64,000 nucleotides of DNA, taken from a virus. Lineage: Duplodnaviria; Caudoviricetes. Position 1 is the stretch's first letter. Every line of letters starts with the position of its first letter. The DNA lies in the IMG/VR virus record IMGVR_UViG_3300013901_000008, positions 1 to 64,000 of that record; one strand, given 5' to 3'. The position numbers and the translations under genes were made by a program. The notes beneath the pieces are model-generated. The model did not search any database and was not told the origin of the DNA. It worked only from the letters and a program-made list of their open reading frames with translations. This document shows, piece after piece, positions 4,528 to 41,475 of the stretch.

Positions 4528-6027
4528 ATGGACTATCAAAATATATTTAACCGTGATTTCTTTCCCACGCCTCGCGATGTATTCGAGCAAATGACGATGG
4601 GCGAAACCCTCGCCGATGCGGTAGTATTAGAGCCTTCCGCAGGTTCGGGCAACATCATTAACTATTGCATGGAGCAGGGCGCACGATACGCCAAAGCTTG
4701 CGAGATTAACGATACTTTGCGCCAGTCGCTCGTAAATAAGTGTTGCGTTATCGCTTCCGACTTCTTCACCGTCCGTCCTGAACAAATAACCGATGTTACG
4801 TATATCATCATGAATCCGCCATTCACCGCAGCCGCAAAGCACGTTTTGCACGCTTGGGAGATTGCACCACAGGGCAGCACGATATTAACCGTATATCCGA
4901 CAAGTCATTTGAAATGGTGCGACACCACGGAAAAGAAGGTTAAAGAGCTGGTGGAACTCTTCGGCAGCCGTGAGGACATCGGCGACGCATTCAACCAGGG
5001 CACGGCAGAACGTCGCACAGATGCCGAGGTGTCAATCCTTCGCCTTTATAAGCCATCGGAAAAACTAGAGGTTTTCGAGCACATCGATTTCGATTTTACG
5101 CCTGAAGGCATGGCGGACCAAGGCAATGGCACCGAGGGAGTAATAAAATACGACGCTTTGCGCGATATGGTGCAACGTTATTACTCAGCGGTTGCGCAAT
5201 TCGACGCAGTGCAGGAGGCAAGTGAGCGGATCAACGCAGATATTAAGACGTTCACGAGTTGCAAGATTAATTTCGGCGCACATGGCAAGGACGACGAGGG
5301 GCACGAGTTATGCAATATCACCCGCGAGCGATTCCGCAAGGAGTTGCAAATTGCAGCCTGGCGCAAAGTTTTCGGCTTGCTCAACATGCAGAAGTATAGC
5401 ACGAATGCCCTACAAGAGAAGATAGCCCGATTCGTGGAGACTTCCCAGGCTCGCCCGTTCACGCTGCGTAACATCTACTTAGTTGTTAACGATGTTATCC
5501 AAAATATCGGCAACATTATGAACGAGTGCGTAGTAAAAGCTTTCGACACGATTTGCAGCTTGTCTGCTGATGATTCGACAGCGGGCGAGAAGTGGAAGAC
5601 TAATAGCAATTATATGGTTAATCAACGTTTCATCGTTGATGGCATGGACTGCGAGTATGAACGAGACTACAAGACGAACGATTATTATTTGCGTTTTAGC
5701 TACATTTCTTCTTATCGCCGACGTGACCAGGTGGAAGACCTTTATAAAGCTTTGTGTTTCGTATGCGGTAAGCAGATAAATGAAGGCTTTTATCGTCCCT
5801 TCGAGAACGACGTAGTAAAACAGTGCAAGGACTTCGGCACATGGTATTATTTCGACTGGTTCCGTGTCCGCTTCTACAAGAAAGGCACGATGCACTTTGA
5901 GTTCACAGATATAAATGTCTGGTATCGCTTTAATCAGATTGCGGCACAGGCGAAGGGCTGGAAGATAGGCAGCCAGGGAGCTTGCAAGAAAAGCCGAGTA
6001 TGGCGAGACATCAAGAAGCCGGAGTAA
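4528..6027 (+). CDS. amino (N6A/N4C) DNA methyltransferase fused to a DUF4942-like domain
   Basis: FFPTP, VLEPSAGSG (SAM-binding), IMNPPF (catalytic); C-terminal FRVRFYKKGTMHFEF typical of DUF4942. Confidence 0.8.
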   Translation: MDYQNIFNRDFFPTPRDVFEQMTMGETLADAVVLEPSAGSGNIINYCMEQGARYAKACEINDTLRQSLVNKCCVIASDFFTVRPEQITDVTYIIMNPPFTAAAKHVLHAWEIAPQGSTILTVYPTSHLKWCDTTEKKVKELVELFGSREDIGDAFNQGTAERRTDAEVSILRLYKPSEKLEVFEHIDFDFTPEGMADQGNGTEGVIKYDALRDMVQRYYSAVAQFDAVQEASERINADIKTFTSCKINFGAHGKDDEGHELCNITRERFRKELQIAAWRKVFGLLNMQKYSTNALQEKIARFVETSQARPFTLRNIYLVVNDVIQNIGNIMNECVVKAFDTICSLSADDSTAGEKWKTNSNYMVNQRFIVDGMDCEYERDYKTNDYYLRFSYISSYRRRDQVEDLYKALCFVCGKQINEGFYRPFENDVVKQCKDFGTWYYFDWFRVRFYKKGTMHFEFTDINVWYRFNQIAAQAKGWKIGSQGACKKSRVWRDIKKPE

Positions 6028-18967: not shown

Positions 18968-19281
18968 ATATTGACGATATAGACCCACGAAGGGCGAAGG
19001 GTAGCGGAAACGCCCCTGCGAATATGTAACCACCCATTCTGCGCTGAAACGTCTTGCGCTTTAATTTGAATCAGTCGGGGAGGGGAGCCGAGATAGCAAA
19101 GATTCTAACTGCTCCTACCCTATGCGGTACCCCCCCCGAATTTAAGGCTTCGGGAAGCGTGATGCGAGTAAGCCTTTGGTACTCGATAACGACATATCGC
19201 GAGCATCTAATCTGGAAAGCAGGATGGTAACACTTGAAAGTTTGGCCTCGCCTATTTCGCTGGGTCTATTGTCGTTGGTAT
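18968..19281 (+). ncRNA. candidate structured ncRNA 2 (about 315 nt)
   Basis: Closing stem ATTGACGATA-TAGACCCA-CGAA-GGGCGA / TCGCCT-TTCG-TGGGTCTA-TGTCGTTGGT; several GAAA/GTAA hairpins. Confidence 0.6.
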
Positions 19282-23952: not shown

Positions 23953-25149
23953 ATGAAAATTCAAGCTTCTTCAGCAGCGGCACTGAAACTGGCTCTCCAT
24001 AAAGCCTCCAAGTGCATCGAAAATAAGCCGAGCATGGCTATCCTCGCCAACGTCTTGCTCACTCAGCGAAGAGACGGCGATGGCAAGTTCTTCTTTATAT
24101 CTGCCACCTCTGACTCACAACTCACCATCCCTGCGCCTTTCAGCATCGTGGAGGGCAAGTACAGCAAGGACATCGTTTTGCCAGTGGCTATGCTTACATC
24201 ATTCATCGGTACCCTGCCAGGCGATTGCGTGGTGACATTCGATATTTCGGAAGACTCGCAAGACTTCACCATCGAGTATTGCACAGGCGATGGCGAGAAT
24301 GTGAAGACAGGTAAGGTATCGCTCGGCTATGACAAGGCAGACGATTTCCCTTTGGCAAGAAAAATCGGCGATGGATATACAGAGGTAGTCTTCCCGATGT
24401 CAGTATTCAAGTCCGTCCTGGGCAACGCTGGCAAGTTTGTGGCAGCCGATGAGTTGCGCCCAGTGATGAACTGCCTTTGCATCGACGTGACCGAAGACTT
24501 CTCGGAGGCAGTCTTTGTGGCTTCCGACGGCCATAAGCTCTTCAAACAGATTCACCCTAACAAGCCGGAGCAGGGAGGCAGCGACTTCTATCGCCAGGGT
24601 GCAGCCATGAAGATTTTGGTTCACTCCCAGTATCTGAAAGTTCTTTCCGTGTTCGAGGATTGCGAGGACATCAATATCCAGTGCGATGGCAAGATGGTGC
24701 GCTTCGCTTCGGGCGATATTGAGTATGTTTGCACCTTGGTGGATGGCAAATATCCTAACTACAATTCGGTTATCCCGAAAGATACTCCTTGCTATGCGGT
24801 ATGCAACAAGCGAGAGTTGTTGAGCATCATCAAGCGTATCTCCCTCTTCAGTAGCGAAAGCTCCAAGCTGATTTCGATGAAGAAGGATGGCATGTTCCTC
24901 GACATTTCCGCACAGGACATTGACTTCTCGGTATCGGGCGAAGACCAAGTGTTGGTTACGGATAGCGAGTGCCCAGAGGGTTTTCTTATCGGCTTCTCTT
25001 GGCTTACGCTGATGGATAGTGTGAACGCCATCCCTACGGAGAACGTTCGATTGAACTTCATCGACAAGAGCCGTGCCATTACGGTTACGGAGGATAATCC
25101 TGCCAGCAAGGTAACGACCCTCGTGATGCCGATGTTGCTCAACGACTAA
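23953..25149 (+). CDS. dnaN: DNA polymerase III beta sliding clamp
   Basis: DELRPVMN, VASDGHKL, GKYPNYNSVIP, ISAQDIDF, LVMPM motifs; 398 aa. Confidence 0.92.
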   Translation: MKIQASSAAALKLALHKASKCIENKPSMAILANVLLTQRRDGDGKFFFISATSDSQLTIPAPFSIVEGKYSKDIVLPVAMLTSFIGTLPGDCVVTFDISEDSQDFTIEYCTGDGENVKTGKVSLGYDKADDFPLARKIGDGYTEVVFPMSVFKSVLGNAGKFVAADELRPVMNCLCIDVTEDFSEAVFVASDGHKLFKQIHPNKPEQGGSDFYRQGAAMKILVHSQYLKVLSVFEDCEDINIQCDGKMVRFASGDIEYVCTLVDGKYPNYNSVIPKDTPCYAVCNKRELLSIIKRISLFSSESSKLISMKKDGMFLDISAQDIDFSVSGEDQVLVTDSECPEGFLIGFSWLTLMDSVNAIPTENVRLNFIDKSRAITVTEDNPASKVTTLVMPMLLND

Positions 25150-26589: not shown

Positions 26590-26662
26590 GCTGGATTAGC
26601 TCAGTTGGCAGAGCGTTCGCCTTGTAAGCGAAAGGTCATAGGTTCGAGTCCTGTATTCAGCT
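26590..26662 (+). tRNA. tRNA-Thr(TGT)
   Basis: GCTGGAT/ATTCAGC acceptor, TAGCTCAGTTGGCAGAGC D-arm, TTCGC-CT-TGT-AA-GCGAA anticodon arm, GGTTCGAGTCC T-arm; CCA not encoded. Confidence 0.93.
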
Positions 26663-26664
26663 CT

Positions 26665-26805
26665 ATGAAAAAGGAAATAGCAATCAATACCTGTATGGGG
26701 AATGTGGCGGTAACGATAAATACCCGATACGAGAATCTCAATATTGAGCATTTTATGTCGTTGGCTCATTTTCCAAGAACAGGGGTAATGGAGGTGTACC
26801 TATGA
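26665..26805 (+). CDS. stand-alone C5-MTase TRD-like minigene 1 (in frame, 46 aa)
   Basis: MKKEIAINTCMGNVAVTINTRYENLNIEHFMSLAHFPRTGVMEVYL; homologous to module 3. Confidence 0.7.
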   Translation: MKKEIAINTCMGNVAVTINTRYENLNIEHFMSLAHFPRTGVMEVYL

Positions 26806-26947
26806 TTAAGTTGGACTATCATATCCCCAAAATAGGGGGGTGCTGACAGGCGTATCGGAGGATTTTAACCGAGGTGCGCTGTGGCTCGTAAGCCGCTGCA
26901 TACGTAGCAATGTGCATGACGCTGGCATTCTCATTCAATATGAATAA
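26802..26947 (+). pseudogene. TRD-like minigene 2, OFF at G6 (26835-40); G7 restores the frame
   Basis: MIKLDYHIPKIGG|VLTGVSEDFNRGALWLVSRCIRSNVHDAGILIQYE after +1 G; ATGA overlap with module 1. Confidence 0.7.
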
Positions 26948-26959
26948 AAACAAATAACA

Positions 26960-28363
26960 ATGATAACAAAAATAAACTTCAAGGACAGAACGATAAAATC
27001 GTATGCCATCAGAAAGCTGACTCCCAAGGAGTGTTTCAGATTGATGGGCATTCGGGACGGAGTAATCCTCCTGATGCAAGCAAGCATATCCCTTGCCAAG
27101 ACTCGCATATCAAGCGCATTCGGCAAAGATGCTTGGGCGCATATCTTTGGCAAGGCTGTAAAAGGCAACGACAATGATATGGTTATATCGGCGAGCCAAC
27201 AATACAAGCAGGCTGGCAACTCCATCGTAGTAGATGTGCTGAAAAGCATCTACTCACAGCTTTGGTACCCAGCACCCAAGCAACCACAGGCACAGCAAGC
27301 ATCGCTCTTCGATGATTTCTTTCCCGAAGACGTATTGCCGTCTATGCCGGTGGAGAAGAACCCAAGCGACAAGGCGAATATCCAGCCTGGCGACAAGGTG
27401 GCTCCAGAGGAGAAAGTGATTATCACTACCTTTAGCGGATATGACAGCCAGTTGATGGCGGCGGATGCCTTGCGTGAGGATCATCCCGATTTCAGATGGA
27501 CGTGCATGGGTTGGAGCGACATCGACAAGTACGCCTGTCAGATGCACAACCTCGTGTTTCCGCAATATGCCGACCGAGCACTTGGCGATATTACCAAGAT
27601 AGATTGGCACAAAGTAAAGGATAGCTTGCAAGGCAGAGAGGTGGACTTGTTTACTTATTCATCTCCTTGCCAAGACATCAGCCAGGCTGGCAAGCAGATG
27701 GGACTGAAAGAGGGTAGCGACACCCGAAGTGCCTTGCTTTGGCGAGTAGCCGATGCCATCGAAGTATTGCAACCTAAGTATCTCCTGCAAGAGAATGTGG
27801 CGGCACTGGTAAGCGAGAAGTTCATGCCCGACTTCAAGAAATGGTTGCAGAAGTTGGAGAGCCTTGGCTACGTGAACCGATGGGCGAGACTGAATGCCAA
27901 GGATTACGGTGTGCCACAGAACAGAGACCGAGTATTCTGCCTCTCGATGAGAAGAGACGTGGCTTTCGATTACCAATTCCCTGAGCCTGTCAAACTGGAA
28001 AAGAAATTGGAGGATGTCTTGGAAGAAGAGGTGGATAAGAGATATTTCCTGAAAGACGATGCGGTATCAAAATTCCTCAAGGCAAACGACAAGGACAGCG
28101 CATTGTTCGTGCAGTTCGACCTTCCACCCAAGCATGAGGATGCGATGTTCCTCAAGACATGGCTCTCGTTTTGGATGGAGGAAGTGAATGGCTGGGAAAT
28201 GAAGCCTACGGAACTGGATAAAGTTATCTGCGAGAAAATGATTGTCGGCAAGTTTACCTACGATTATTCTTCGTGGAAACAAGATGGCACAGAGCCAAGC
28301 GAATACTCTGGTTTCCGTGAGAGATATTTGGAGAATCTGAATAGAAAGGCTTCGGAAGAATGA
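26960..28363 (+). CDS. circularly permuted C5-cytosine DNA methyltransferase (motifs IX-X then I-VIII) with no recognisable TRD
   Basis: N-terminal RKLTPKECFRLMG (IX) and YKQAGNSIVVDVL (X), then FSGYDS (I), SPCQD (IV), ENV (VI), PQNRDRVF (VIII). Confidence 0.92.
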   Translation: MITKINFKDRTIKSYAIRKLTPKECFRLMGIRDGVILLMQASISLAKTRISSAFGKDAWAHIFGKAVKGNDNDMVISASQQYKQAGNSIVVDVLKSIYSQLWYPAPKQPQAQQASLFDDFFPEDVLPSMPVEKNPSDKANIQPGDKVAPEEKVIITTFSGYDSQLMAADALREDHPDFRWTCMGWSDIDKYACQMHNLVFPQYADRALGDITKIDWHKVKDSLQGREVDLFTYSSPCQDISQAGKQMGLKEGSDTRSALLWRVADAIEVLQPKYLLQENVAALVSEKFMPDFKKWLQKLESLGYVNRWARLNAKDYGVPQNRDRVFCLSMRRDVAFDYQFPEPVKLEKKLEDVLEEEVDKRYFLKDDAVSKFLKANDKDSALFVQFDLPPKHEDAMFLKTWLSFWMEEVNGWEMKPTELDKVICEKMIVGKFTYDYSSWKQDGTEPSEYSGFRERYLENLNRKASEE

Positions 28364-28544
28364 AATTTTGTCTAACCAAGGTTGGAAAATCTCGCCTCTT
28401 AAATGAGGGGGGCGGCAACAACCGGTCAACGTAACAAGCGATATGTGTGCAGCGACAATTACCACAAGGTACGAGAATATCGGGCCAACCAATATTCTTT
28501 CGTTAGCGCATTATCCTATGACGGTAGTAATGATAGAATTATGA
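28360..28544 (+). pseudogene. TRD-like minigene 3, OFF at G6 (28407-12); G7 restores the frame
   Basis: MKFCLTKVGKSRLLNEGG|RQQPVNVTSDMCAATITTRYENIGPTNILSLAHYPMTVVMIEL; ATGA overlap with the MTase stop. Confidence 0.75.
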
Positions 28545-28693
28545 GGCAAGATTTCTTCCCCATCATCCTCGGTAAATACTCGCCATCACAAAATGGCGTG
28601 GTGGTATCGCCCAAGGGTATCGCCCTGTGTATATCTGGGGGGGGTAAAGGGCATGATGTTGATAAACCAAAGATATTGATAGAGTATGATTGA
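28541..28693 (+). CDS. TRD-like minigene 4, ON with G8 (28637-44), 50 aa
   Basis: MRQDFFPIILGKYSPSQNGVVVSPKGIALCISGGGKGHDVDKPKILIEYD; QNG.V.SP.GIA...PKI is TRD-like. Confidence 0.75.
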   Translation: MRQDFFPIILGKYSPSQNGVVVSPKGIALCISGGGKGHDVDKPKILIEYD

Positions 28694-28832
28694 GATCTGT
28701 TTCATCAATACTCCTTCGCAGAGAATCGGTGGGGCGATTACTGCGCATTATCACAAGGAGGGATTCGCTAATATCATCCCTAATACAACGTCTAAGGTTA
28801 AAGCACAAGCAATATTAGTAAGTTATGAATAA
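28686..28832 (+). CDS. TRD-like minigene 5 (in frame; tract interrupted, GGTGGGG), 48 aa
   Basis: MIEICFINTPSQRIGGAITAHYHKEGFANIIPNTTSKVKAQAILVSYE. Confidence 0.7.
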   Translation: MIEICFINTPSQRIGGAITAHYHKEGFANIIPNTTSKVKAQAILVSYE

Positions 28833-28974
28833 GACAAGACCTTTCGTGAAGCGAGGTGACACGATAAGTTTTCGGGGGAGGTATTCCACGGCACTCTCTT
28901 CCAGATACGATGGCTGGGGCGGCCTCTACGACAACCATGGTCAACATACTATGCTTCTGTTAATCTATGAGTGA
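28825..28974 (+). CDS. TRD-like minigene 6 (in frame; G5AGG), 49 aa
   Basis: MNKTRPFVKRGDTISFRGRYSTALSSRYDGWGGLYDNHGQHTMLLLIYE. Confidence 0.7.
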   Translation: MNKTRPFVKRGDTISFRGRYSTALSSRYDGWGGLYDNHGQHTMLLLIYE

Positions 28975-29153
28975 GCGCAGAGCCATCCTTACCCACTACC
29001 GCACGGAAGAGGCAAAAGCCTTCCGCCGTCTTTACGGAGATACGGGGGGGGTGCAAGTATCAAGACAAATATCACAGGATGAGTCGTGAGCCGTGGAGCA
29101 ACACGATTTCCACTGTGACAAAAGACAATTTATTATGCACAGAATATTTCTGA
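28967..29153 (+). pseudogene. TRD-like minigene 7, OFF at G8 (29044-51); G7 restores the frame
   Basis: MSERRAILTHYRTEEAKAFRRLYGDTGG|CKYQDKYHRMSREPWSNTISTVTKDNLLCTEYF; SNTISTVTKDNLL is a TRD-type motif. Confidence 0.78.
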
Positions 29154-29314
29154 TAAGAGAAGCCAGAACCGAGCACGCCAAGCAGGTGCGCAAGCTCACG
29201 GGCAGGAATGATTTCCGAGACAAGCAAGTCCCGCTCATCTTTGCCCACGAGACGATGCAGTGCATCGGTACGTTTCTCACAACCGATAACTTGATAGGAG
29301 TATGTTACAAGTAA
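29135..29314 (+). CDS. TRD-like minigene 8 (in frame, no tract), 59 aa
   Basis: MHRIFLIREARTEHAKQVRKLTGRNDFRDK...CIGTFLTTDNLIGVCYK; homologous to module 7 (RTExAK, DNL). Confidence 0.72.
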   Translation: MHRIFLIREARTEHAKQVRKLTGRNDFRDKQVPLIFAHETMQCIGTFLTTDNLIGVCYK

Positions 29315-29458
29315 GGACGTGCGCAAGCCGTGGCAGAAGCGATGGAGATTGGTATCATTCCAAGCATGAGCAAAGGCTGGAAATACGGGGGGGGTGGAGT
29401 TAGCAATGCCATCTCTTCCATCGCCAAGGACTTCTTAATCATCATCGGGTATGAATAA
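29302..29458 (+). pseudogene. TRD-like minigene 9, OFF at G8 (29387-94); G7 restores the frame
   Basis: MLQVRTCASRGRSDGDWYHSKHEQRLEIRG|GGVSNAISSIAKDFLIIIGYE; ASRGR...QRLE...SNAISSIAKD is TRD-like. Confidence 0.78.
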
Positions 29459-36658: not shown

Positions 36659-36974
36659 ATGCCACAATACAAGCGAGGTACCATCGTCAAGAATGGCAAG
36701 CGATACGGCTTCTATCCCGATGGTACATTATATAGAATATACGACACATCACTACCATTCCTTCAGATGGTGAGCGATGCCGCATCGGGCGATACCTTCC
36801 TTCGCATTCGCCAAGCCACGGAACAGGGTTACACCGATTGTCCCGTGGGTGGCGTTTGCGACCTCGCCTATCCTACGTCGGCGATACGTCGAAGTAGAAC
36901 AATCGGGGGGGGGTAGGCTCGCCAATGCCCTTACAAGCCAAGGGCAGCAGCTATGCGTGTTCGTAGAGTTGTAG
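36659..36974 (+). pseudogene. remote TRD-like gene 10, OFF at G9 (36905-13); G8 restores a 104-aa protein
   Basis: IRQATEQGY...GGVCDLAYPTSAIRRSRTIGG|GRLANALTSQGQQLCVFVEL; QATxxGY and DLxYPxSxxRR are TRD-type motifs. Confidence 0.78.
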
Positions 36975-37195: not shown

Positions 37196-38106
37196 TCAGT
37201 TGAACCATTTCACAATGGTGTCGCCCTTGTAACCTTTCTCCCATACGAACCAAGCGTAAGCGGCTGCACTACCCTGCAAAGCGTTGAAGTCGCCATTAGG
37301 CGCACATTTCAAGCGGCTGCTTGATACCCAAACCCTTGAGGGGGGGTAGTGTTAAACAGATGTCTTCTACCCTTACCCTCTAAGAAAGTAAGCTTCAAAA
37401 ACATCGCTACCTTATGCCCATCTGGAATAATCGCCAAAGACTTCTCTACAAACTCTTTGGCATATTTGTATGGCGGATTGGTAACAATATCGCCGTTCCA
37501 CGAGAGGTTGTCTATCGCCAAGAAGTCTATGCCTCCATCGCCGTAACCTCTATCTACCAAGTCTCGACTCTCTACCTCGTAGCCATTCTTCAGCAAGACC
37601 TTACTGATATGACCCTCGCCGCACGATGGCTCCAATATCGGACCATCGAATTTCTCAATCTTGCATAGCCACTCCGTAGCCGCAGGCTCCGTGGCATAAT
37701 AGTCTTCACGCTGGCGGTCGGTATCGGTATGATTACTTGCGCCTAATGTTTTAAAGACGGAAGCAGTCCCGCCTACCCAATCTTTTTTGTTATCCATATT
37801 ATTATTGTTATTTGAAATGTTATCCCCATCGGTTTCTTCACTCTCGGCAGAAACATTGATTTGACGGTTTATCCACTCTATGATGTCTTCATCAGCATCC
37901 TCGGCCAACTCGTTTAGCGTAACGTAGCCATACGCGTCTTCCATCGGATCATCCTCTGTCACCATATAGCTGATTTGGGAATCCTTAAATCCTAAGGCAT
38001 ATAGGATAGCTTCTATATCGTCATTCTGCAAATTCTTAGTCGCATTATCCTCGTCGTTGATAATTGTGACAGTTCCACTACTGTAATCTAAAATTGAAAT
38101 ATACAT
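37196..38106 (-). pseudogene. amino DNA methyltransferase, frameshifted OFF at C7 (G7 on + strand, 37340-46)
   Basis: DYYAT, EPSCGEG, TNPPY; +1 C continues TTPPSRVWVSSSRL...AYAWFVWEKGYKGDTIVKWFN to the stop at 37196; the MTase may start at 37797. Confidence 0.8.
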
Positions 38107-40805: not shown

Positions 40806-41475
40806 TTAGAATAGGGTAGGCTGCATCATCTCCAATTCGATGCGCTTGCAAGCCTTGTCGTAATACTCCTTGTTTAGTTCAAACCCGATGAAGTTGCGCT
40901 TCTCCTTGATGCAAGCGATGGCAGTAGTGCCGCTGCCCAAAAATGGGTCTAAAACCGTATCGTTTTCATTAGTGCTTGCAAGAATCAGCTTACGAAACAG
41001 TTTAGTGGGCTTTTGTGTGGGGTGTATATTGCTATGTCCGCAAGGATAACGTAACACGGTATTCTTACAATGAAGGTTAAACACCCCCCCCCGTTTTCTT
41101 GCCATATACGCACAGCTCTACACCGCTTAACCAAATTTTATTGCCATTCATCGGCGAAGGGTTTGTCTTTTCCCAAACTATAACCCTCGTGCTAAGCTTA
41201 TACTCTTGCATCACGGAACGAATAGTAGAAAGTTGATTAATACCACAGAACATATAAATGCTACCTTTTGTTTTTCTGCAAAGGGTAGATGTTAATTCTT
41301 TTAGATTAAACAAACCTACATCCGCATATTCTTTATTTAAACTACGCAATCCATTATCTGGGCGATTACATTCGTTATAAGGAATATCCGTAAGTACGAG
41401 CGACACACTTGCATCGGGTATTCGCTTCATGCCCTCCAAGCAATCCTCATTATATACTTTATTCAGTTCTATCAT
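40806..41475 (-). pseudogene. beta-class N4C/N6A DNA methyltransferase, frameshifted OFF at G9 (C9 on + strand, 41084-92); G8 restores the frame
   Basis: 5' half DCLEGM...LTDIPY...IVWEKTNP; 3' half HPTQKP...VLDPFLGSGTT; the junction is exactly at the tract. Confidence 0.88.

Follow-up and report, generated by a model that had tools for sequence, protein, structure and literature searches.

How can a cytosine-5 (C5) DNA methyltransferase (MTase) find its target when its chain carries no target recognition domain (TRD)? This question is raised by a locus at positions 26665-29458 of the first 64 kb of a 106.5-kb virus record in IMG/VR (IMGVR_UViG_3300013901_000008; Duplodnaviria, Caudoviricetes). 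We call this 64,000-nt stretch the window. The locus contains one circularly permuted C5 MTase, called the core below, and nine open reading frames (ORFs) of 46-61 aa that flank it, two upstream and seven downstream (M1-M9). We propose that one catalytic core uses interchangeable TRD subunits, which act in trans and are switched by slippage. As a full mechanism, we consider this probable, with clear reserve on some of its steps.

The anatomy of the parts can be established directly. The core is the following gene.

26960..28363, + strand: catalytic core, a circularly permuted C5 DNA methyltransferase without a TRD, 467 aa (Pfam, M.MpeI alignment, homologues, model, Foldseek)

The best PDB matches of the core were M.HhaI and M.MpeI, which also came first in Foldseek, and its family has thousands of database members. 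The order of its parts is motif IX, motif X, a linker, motifs I-VIII and a helical C-terminal domain, with motifs IX-X N-terminal to motif I. Residues 14-30 are motif IX (aligned to M.MpeI 332-348) and residues 75-103 are motif X (M.MpeI 362-390). Motifs I-VIII span residues 150-363, and residues 203-363 align to M.MpeI 100-274, a stretch that runs past motif VIII into the first part of the variable region. All the motifs, including I (FxGxG-like), IV (PCQ), VI (ENV), VIII (QNRxR), IX (RxLTPxE) and X (GNS), were invariant in 20 homologues. The PF00145 match (E = 9e-52) was confined to residues 181-378, and the alignment to M.MpeI gave no counterpart in the core of the 57-residue M.MpeI TRD (275-331). 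In addition, a TRD was found at neither end of the core (type H or type J): only 13 residues precede motif IX, and no TRD-like sequence was found in the C-terminal tail. A preliminary description, made from the letters of the DNA, had claimed a permuted MTase without a TRD at this place, and both the extent of PF00145 and the M.MpeI alignment bear it out. An AlphaFold2 model of the core alone was of moderate confidence (pLDDT 67), and secondary structure alone was taken from it. It places an N-terminal beta-hairpin ahead of motif IX, and the C-terminal 80 residues were modelled as one strand and four helices (pLDDT 81-91).

The nine minigenes around the core are as follows.

26665..26805, + strand: M1, TRD-like, family M1/M3, 46 aa, intact (ORF; homologues in 38 loci)
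26802..26947, + strand: M2, TRD-like, broken at G6 (26835-26840); G7 gives one 48-aa ORF
28360..28544, + strand: M3, TRD-like, its ATG overlapping the stop of the core, broken at G6 (28407-28412); G7 gives a 60-aa ORF
28541..28693, + strand: M4, TRD minigene of 50 aa, intact; G8 (28637-28644) is in frame and encodes a conserved GGG
28686..28832, + strand: M5, TRD-like, 48 aa, intact (ORF, homologues)
28825..28974, + strand: M6, TRD-like, 49 aa, intact (ORF; family in 59 loci)
28967..29153, + strand: M7, TRD-like, broken at G8 (29044-29051); G7 gives a 61-aa ORF
29135..29314, + strand: M8, TRD-like, 59 aa, intact, paralogue of M7
29302..29458, + strand: M9, TRD-like, broken at G8 (29387-29394); G7 gives a 51-aa ORF

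The gene order is tRNA-Thr, M1, M2, a 12-nt gap, the core, and then M3-M9 head to tail. ATG and stop codons overlap at M1/M2, core/M3, M3/M4, M4/M5, M5/M6, M6/M7 and M8/M9, mostly as ATGA, ATGAxTGA or ATGAxTAA. The homopolymer tracts lie inside the reading frames and their length sets the frame: M2, M3, M7 and M9 shift frame exactly at the tract, and with G7 all four become single ORFs of 48-61 aa that match intact orthologues. The earlier account of nine minigenes, with their coordinates, their overlaps, the breaks at G6, G6, G8 and G8, the repair by G7 and M4 in frame at G8, was confirmed in all its details. Furthermore, five of the 12 G/C runs of at least six bases in the whole window sit within the 2.8 kb of the array, and this clustering is beyond chance.

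Are these short frames genes at all? We found 136 related viral loci, which points to a widespread family and not to an isolated case, and 80 of them were fetched and compared (L001-L080). The module families adjoin the core in 79 loci, including the window. M4 was found in 73 loci, M7/M8 in 70, M9 in 67, M6 in 59, M2 in 40, M1/M3 in 38 and M5 in 32. Each locus has 2-10 recognised modules, and the repertoire is mosaic. Intact M7 orthologues of 60 aa are present in about 60 loci, and intact M9 orthologues also exist. ON and OFF states were assigned by inspection, family by family. Two automatic classifiers, one based on ORF length and the other on bridging homology, were dropped, because wrong frames stay open in such short genes and are common to close relatives. 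Selection on the minigenes was also observed directly: dN/dS (the ratio of nonsynonymous to synonymous rates) was 0.086 for M4 and 0.12 for M7, and the other two frames of the same DNA gave 1.5-3.0. On the evidence of these sequence comparisons, we regard the minigenes as real, conserved and selected genes.

These data also bear on the idea that the minigenes are functionless debris of a single-chain multi-TRD methylase, fragmented by frameshifts and nonsense mutations. The order of motif VIII, variable region and tandem TRD-like units does resemble the variable region of H2 and rho11s, and four of the nine minigenes are frameshifted here. However, dN/dS values of about 0.1 already contradict it. 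In addition, the start/stop junctions are kept in 79 loci, module ORFs of 49-61 aa are intact across lineages whose cores are just 65-86% identical, and motifs IX-X lie upstream of motif I and not after the array. We find this explanation hardly credible.

Some side observations on the core family may be added here. In three of the related phages (L035, L046 and L066) the core is truncated to 47, 101 and 280 aa, which indicates that whole systems are sometimes knocked out. In one database protein (P0019, 119 aa), the core N-terminus (IX-X) is joined directly to the C-terminal half of an M7-type module; this chimera is either a natural deletion or an assembly artefact.

If the modules are genes, do they act as separate polypeptides? 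Each module has its own ATG and stop, kept across the loci, and the arrangement found was not a tandem fusion into one polypeptide. L002 and L004 had seemed to be objections, with a core and no modules. This objection was dropped when scans of these two complete genomes located the modules 5.5-10 kb downstream of the core, among unrelated genes. The genome under study likewise has one C5 core, with nine adjacent TRD-like genes and at least four remote ones.

36659..36974, + strand: M10, a remote tenth TRD gene, broken at G9 (36905-36913); G8 restores it
About 67567-67952 of the genome (G000:C1), beyond the window: a GIAPT-family module that has G8 in frame at 67783, followed by a TRD-like neighbour with an overlapping ATG
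About 78865-78999 of the genome (G000:C1), beyond the window: a further TRD-like minigene, with G7 at 78926

That modules also stand kilobases from the core fits action in trans. The rival view is that recoding links the modules covalently to the core, so that ordinary permuted methylases with a cis TRD result. Read-through of the TAA ahead of the core might attach M2, a -1 shift at ATGA might attach M3, and ribosome hopping might attach the others. For M2, the frame after the tract in the window is that of the core, with one TAA between them; the ATG of M3 overlaps the stop of the core, and M3 fused to the core would be a TRD at the C-terminus, a plausible topology for a permuted enzyme (type J, PMC5944983). 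However, there are two stops between M2 and the core in L001, modules also lie 5-40 kb from the core, and M4-M9 each have a conserved ATG and stop of their own, so that all cannot be fused. Furthermore, no single-chain methylase containing a module was found: a search for longer proteins with the M7 profile gave just module-module fusions of 106-144 aa, which look accidental. Among 1.84 billion representative proteins searched with the M4 profile, all credible relatives had 33-162 aa and no full-length methylase was recognisable, two long repeat-like hits being chance matches. We therefore think that recoding is very improbable.

What do these separate peptides resemble? For M4, BLASTP against the TRD of M.Rho11sI and M.H2I gave E = 3e-4 and 7e-4, and the best of 55 shuffled or reversed controls gave 0.09. 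The GIAPT family, which is a sister of the M4 family (hhalign 93%, E = 3e-7, full length), has the motif RRV[YF].P.GIAP...GGG..KILIE and occurs in relatives and at 67.6 kb of this genome. Its hidden Markov model (HMM) scored 30-36 bits on the same TRD of H2, phi3T and rho11s, and 2.5 bits on the 55 controls. This TRD, common to the three phages, we take to be the GGCC one. When GIAPT was searched by tblastn in 50,697 phage records, all 24 matches were inside C5-MTase genes, including those of phi3T, SPbeta (mtbP), H2 and rho11s. The match in M.Phi3TI covers aa 290-328, downstream of motif VIII (191) and ahead of motif IX (about 380). In addition, the N-terminal half of M10 (36.8 kb) is 46% identical to residues 308-345, in the variable region, of the multi-TRD methylase of phi-SgaBSJ31, a Streptococcus phage (E = 2e-9). 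A member of the M9 family matches residues 343-364 of the same MTase (E = 7e-4), adjoining the M10 match, in the last TRD. Thus, homology to TRDs was observed directly for part of the set, and the modules appear to be TRDs by homology at least in part, namely M4, the M9 family and M10.

The claim that the peptides resemble C5-MTase TRDs stands for those families, and for the others it comes down to a motif pattern and weak profile links. Among the nine minigenes, only M4 has significant homology to the TRDs of characterised multispecific MTases. M1, M2, M3, M5, M6, M7 and M8 are tied to TRDs by the T-[IL]-[ST] core and the hydrophobic C-terminal strand after it, which all module families share with the tandem TRDs of H2, rho11s and phi-SgaBSJ31, and by hhalign links between families (M7 to M8, 100%; M1 to M3, 99.9%; M1 to M5, 87%; M8 to M9, 86%; M2 to M5, 79%). 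The modules were also not recognised by Pfam, PHROGs and PDB sequence or profile searches. It is not surprising that library HMMs miss them, as they are variable regions. When M4, M1, M5 and an M7 orthologue were searched by tblastn in the same 50,697 phage records, each had either no match or a single irrelevant one, and an ESM Atlas search with M6 gave nothing. A GNAT acetyltransferase match of M7 (PDB profile, E = 0.33) and GNAT-like ESM Atlas clusters for M8 (0.83-0.87) were below threshold and were treated as chance.

It could be argued from the many families without a significant match to a known TRD, and from the weak GNAT-like matches of M7 and M8, that the peptides serve some other purpose when they bind the core or DNA, for example as methylase inhibitors, regulators or anti-restriction decoys. 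However, a TRD-less core would then have no means to read DNA. Moreover, TRD homology holds for M4, the M9 family and M10, the shared motif and strand are those of tandem TRDs, and the predicted docking pose described below is that of a TRD. We regard another purpose as decidedly improbable.

Where would a free TRD sit? We predicted the complex of the core (20-row alignment) with M4 (21-row alignment) in three runs with three controls. All three runs gave an ipSAE interface score of 0.87, and no control exceeded 0.02. The mark of 0.87 was reached by 58 of 80 solved complexes and by two of 110 mismatched pairs, which are rough counts because our own alignments were used. The runs had at least 91% of contacts in common, and the pLDDT of the partner was at least 73. 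In the model, the C-terminal strand of M4 (41-50) is antiparallel to core residues 13-20, the strand leading into motif IX. M4 residues 21-34 contact the motif VIII loop of the core (319-323) and residues 345-351, and the N-terminus of M4 contacts the helical C-terminal domain. M4 is therefore docked, as modelled, where a cis TRD sits, and the chain break of the permuted core falls in the hairpin between the TRD and motif IX. A complex model had been suggested as a check for this locus, and the one made with M4 places the peptide at the TRD site. However, single-chain methylases with this packing have been solved, so the model may simply echo those structures, and it is a sign of likeness and not of binding.

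The last ~55 residues of the core (about 413-467; window 28150-28363) are hypervariable between lineages in the window and L001-L080, with at least five unrelated helical variants among cores otherwise 65-90% identical. This hypervariable domain, which touches the N-terminus of M4 in the model, may be a docking or selectivity surface.

Do the tracts switch the modules? We compared the window with Logan contigs from four runs of two studies (X1-X4), which differ from it by 0, 1, 13 and 13 substitutions over 2.9 kb, X2 being the run with none. The tract lengths were as follows.

M2 tract, 26835 (window G6): X1 G7, X2 G7, X3 G7, X4 G8
M3 tract, 28407 (window G6): G6 in X1, X2, X3 and X4
M4 tract, 28637 (window G8): X1 G9, X2 G8, X3 G7, X4 G7
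M7 tract, 29044 (window G8): X1 G6, X2 G7, X3 G8, X4 G7
M9 tract, 29387 (window G8): X1 contigs break at the tract, X2 G7, X3 G7, X4 not covered

Four of the five tracts differ in length among the runs, and the sole other indel is one G at 26954 (X3 and X4). X2 has zero substitutions and could be the sample from which the window came, yet three of its tracts are unlike the window. Both ON and OFF lengths are therefore found among near-clonal genomes, as judged from contigs: the contigs contain ON lengths of M2, M7 and M9 and OFF lengths of M4, which means that both forms exist in nature. The related loci vary too. At the M4 site, most loci have a G5 that is interrupted and stable; six have G8 (ON), and seven have an OFF length (G6, G7 or G10). 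The M3 site in other loci is G5 (interrupted), G8, G9 or G10, and in L001, whose core is 86% identical, the M2 tract is G8 and the M7 tract is G8 (OFF). Invariance of the tracts across related genomes had been named as a result that would refute switching; the lengths vary in the contigs and in the related loci, so that polymorphism of tract length in DNA is directly established. Furthermore, in 18 disjoint pairs of near-identical loci, 17 of 34 G/C runs of at least seven bases differ in length, against three of 35 A/T runs. That A/T runs are far stabler argues against generic homopolymer error.

Several points nevertheless weigh against selected switching. The evidence is from assembled contigs and not from raw reads. 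G/C runs outside the arrays are equally unstable (nine of 17 differ), so instability alone is no proof of selection for switching. The OFF state of M7 at G8 is common to the window and L001 and may be an old, fixed lesion, and for M3 the window, the four runs and L001 all show the OFF state. In most orthologues, the Gly-Gly motif is encoded by interrupted, stable codons. All of these would fit a different explanation, in which the tract differences are neutral hypermutation or sequencing and assembly error and the broken modules are decaying; the trans-TRD architecture could still hold in that case. This explanation has to face the roughly fivefold greater stability of A/T runs of equal length, and the ON lengths of M2, M7 and M9 in near-identical contigs. 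It also has to face the place of the runs. G/C runs of at least six bases are in methylation genes in eight of 12 cases in the window and about ten of 16 in the genome, and such genes make up roughly 5% of the DNA. In addition, separate lineages have long tracts without interruption at the same codons. The non-random feature is where long G/C runs are retained. We judge neutral change or error to be unlikely as the whole explanation, but it deserves more weight than any of the other alternatives.

Three of the runs in methylation genes of the window are outside the array: one is in M10, and the other two are in frameshifted amino-methylases.

37196-38106, - strand: N6A/N4C-type methylase (EPSCGEG, NPPY) with a frame change at a C7 run (G7 at 37340 on the + strand)
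40806-41475, - strand: beta-class amino-methylase, split at a 9-base G/C run (41084)

In the first gene, a conserved-looking C-terminus goes on in another frame. In the second, the half with DIPY is read in one frame and the half with HPTQKP/DPFLGSGTT in another. Two more long G/C runs, at 19130 (C8) and 52566 (G8), are outside methylation genes; one of them is intergenic, about 170 nt upstream of a gene for a primase-helicase-like protein of 1230 aa, and the other is in frame (GGG) in a 98-aa ORF.

Returning to our proposal of trans-acting TRDs, the answer to the opening question may be as follows. The tRNA, M1, M2, the core and M3 to M9 would form one operon, with ORFs that are translationally coupled, and it would yield a TRD-less core and free TRD peptides; more TRDs would be made elsewhere in the genome. 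Each minigene of 46-61 aa would be one TRD that docks non-covalently in the vacant site of the core, its C-terminal strand pairing with the strand before motif IX and its central loop lying on motif VIII at the permutation cut. Each peptide would complete the small domain of a core molecule and direct that molecule to one target sequence. The TRDs would compete for the core, and the number of methylated targets would equal the number of TRDs that are ON. The poly-G tracts on Gly-Gly(-Gly) codons would slip in replication and turn individual TRDs ON or OFF in the population. Progeny would then differ in methylation pattern, and some would escape the restriction systems of the next host. From these sequences, the phage is probably able to vary its methylated sequences and so to escape host restriction enzymes.

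In this mechanism, we infer that the peptides bind the core, that each TRD has one specificity, that the core alone is inactive and that switching has an adaptive value. Fast and reversible switching would also be expected. The preliminary description had held that separate TRD subunits act in trans and are switched independently, giving 2^n methylomes. The sequence-level tests support the separate subunits and their switching, whereas a specificity of its own for each peptide and the figure of 2^n are parts that we keep as inference.

The setting of the locus is that of a tailed phage, judging from the gene content (terminase, head protease and a tape-measure protein of 1855 aa). The source record was rated complete by CheckV. 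A DNA search of the locus against the 50,697 deposited phage genomes gave matches to tRNA genes only and no close relative. The gene just ahead of the array is the following.

26590..26663, + strand: tRNA-Thr(TGT), found by ARAGORN, ending 2 nt ahead of the start of M1

This tRNA is probably the head of the same transcript as M1 and the genes after it. A promoter and terminator scan, otherwise uninformative, gave no terminator-like site inside the array. Just upstream of the methylase locus (window 23953-25149) is a gene for a DNA polymerase III beta clamp in which the three Pfam domains are all present, and the primase-helicase-like protein is also encoded by the phage itself. At window 4528-6027, there is a 499-aa protein with an N-terminal DNA-methyltransferase-like region (phrog_32703, phrog_31814), so that the phage has at least four methylase genes.

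How does this arrangement compare with known systems? The multispecific C5-MTases of Bacillus phages (M.SPRI, M.Phi3TI, M.H2I and M.Rho11sI) known from the work of Trautner and colleagues, have several TRDs on one catalytic domain (PMC12707154, PMC8936443). Like them, the system here is encoded by a phage and would supply one catalytic domain with several short TRDs (about 40-60 aa), adjacent in the DNA, presumably as a shield against many restriction enzymes. One of their TRDs has homologues here in M4 and in the GIAPT family. In the Bacillus enzymes, however, a single chain carries the TRDs in tandem, inserted between motifs VIII and IX. Here, the TRDs are separate genes, some of them kilobases away, the core is permuted, and some TRDs have poly-G tracts.

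Natural permuted C5-MTases, including M.BssHII, M.Alw26I, M2.Eco31I, M.Esp3I and M2.BsaI, are cut in the variable region (PMC5944983). The core shares with them the order of IX-X ahead of motif I and the break in the variable region. However, enzymes of the M.BssHII type keep the TRD in the chain, mostly as type H (TRD-IX-X-I-VIII, PMC5944983), and the core here begins after the TRD position. Split C5-MTases are known in nature (M.AquI, alpha and beta) and have been engineered from fragments of M.SssI and M.MpeI (PMC3404938, PMC5944983). As in these, the enzyme here is predicted to be assembled from separate polypeptides cut in the variable region, and an engineered pair of similar concept is cp361 M.MpeI [361-244] + [245-360]. 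However, split MTases consist of two fixed fragments with the TRD attached to IX(-X), and here the TRD alone would be detachable, with many TRDs per core.

In Type I systems, a separate specificity subunit (HsdS) directs the methylase, and in phasevarions slippage in simple sequence repeats changes the methylome of a clonal population. The likeness of our system to HsdS and to repeat-switched mod and hsdS genes is one of logic only, with no homology. In addition, our system is of the C5 class with a monomeric fold, is borne by a phage and not by a cell, and would switch single domains of 5-7 kDa one by one. In a full-text literature search, we found neither C5 TRD subunits with genes of their own nor phage methylase parts switched by poly-G described, in agreement with the preliminary statement that no description of this arrangement was known. 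In its strongest form, the proposal would make this the first C5 methyltransferase whose specificity subunits can dissociate, having at least 13 free single-domain TRD peptides scattered over the genome, many of them gated individually by poly-G, two amino-methylases gated likewise, and combinatorial methylomes pre-adapted to host restriction. We see the case for and against this full statement as evenly balanced.

If the proposal is true, target recognition by a C5 methylase can reside in a stand-alone domain of 5-7 kDa. Annotation would also have to change, as at present the core would pass for a complete methylase and the minigenes would be overlooked or labelled hypothetical. Furthermore, the modules would be a natural kit of swappable specificity parts for the engineering of targeted cytosine methylation. 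For the phages themselves, it would mean counter-defence by stochastic, combinatorial self-methylation in very abundant gut or rumen phages of ~100 kb, and it would explain strain-level differences in phage host range that are invisible in gene content.

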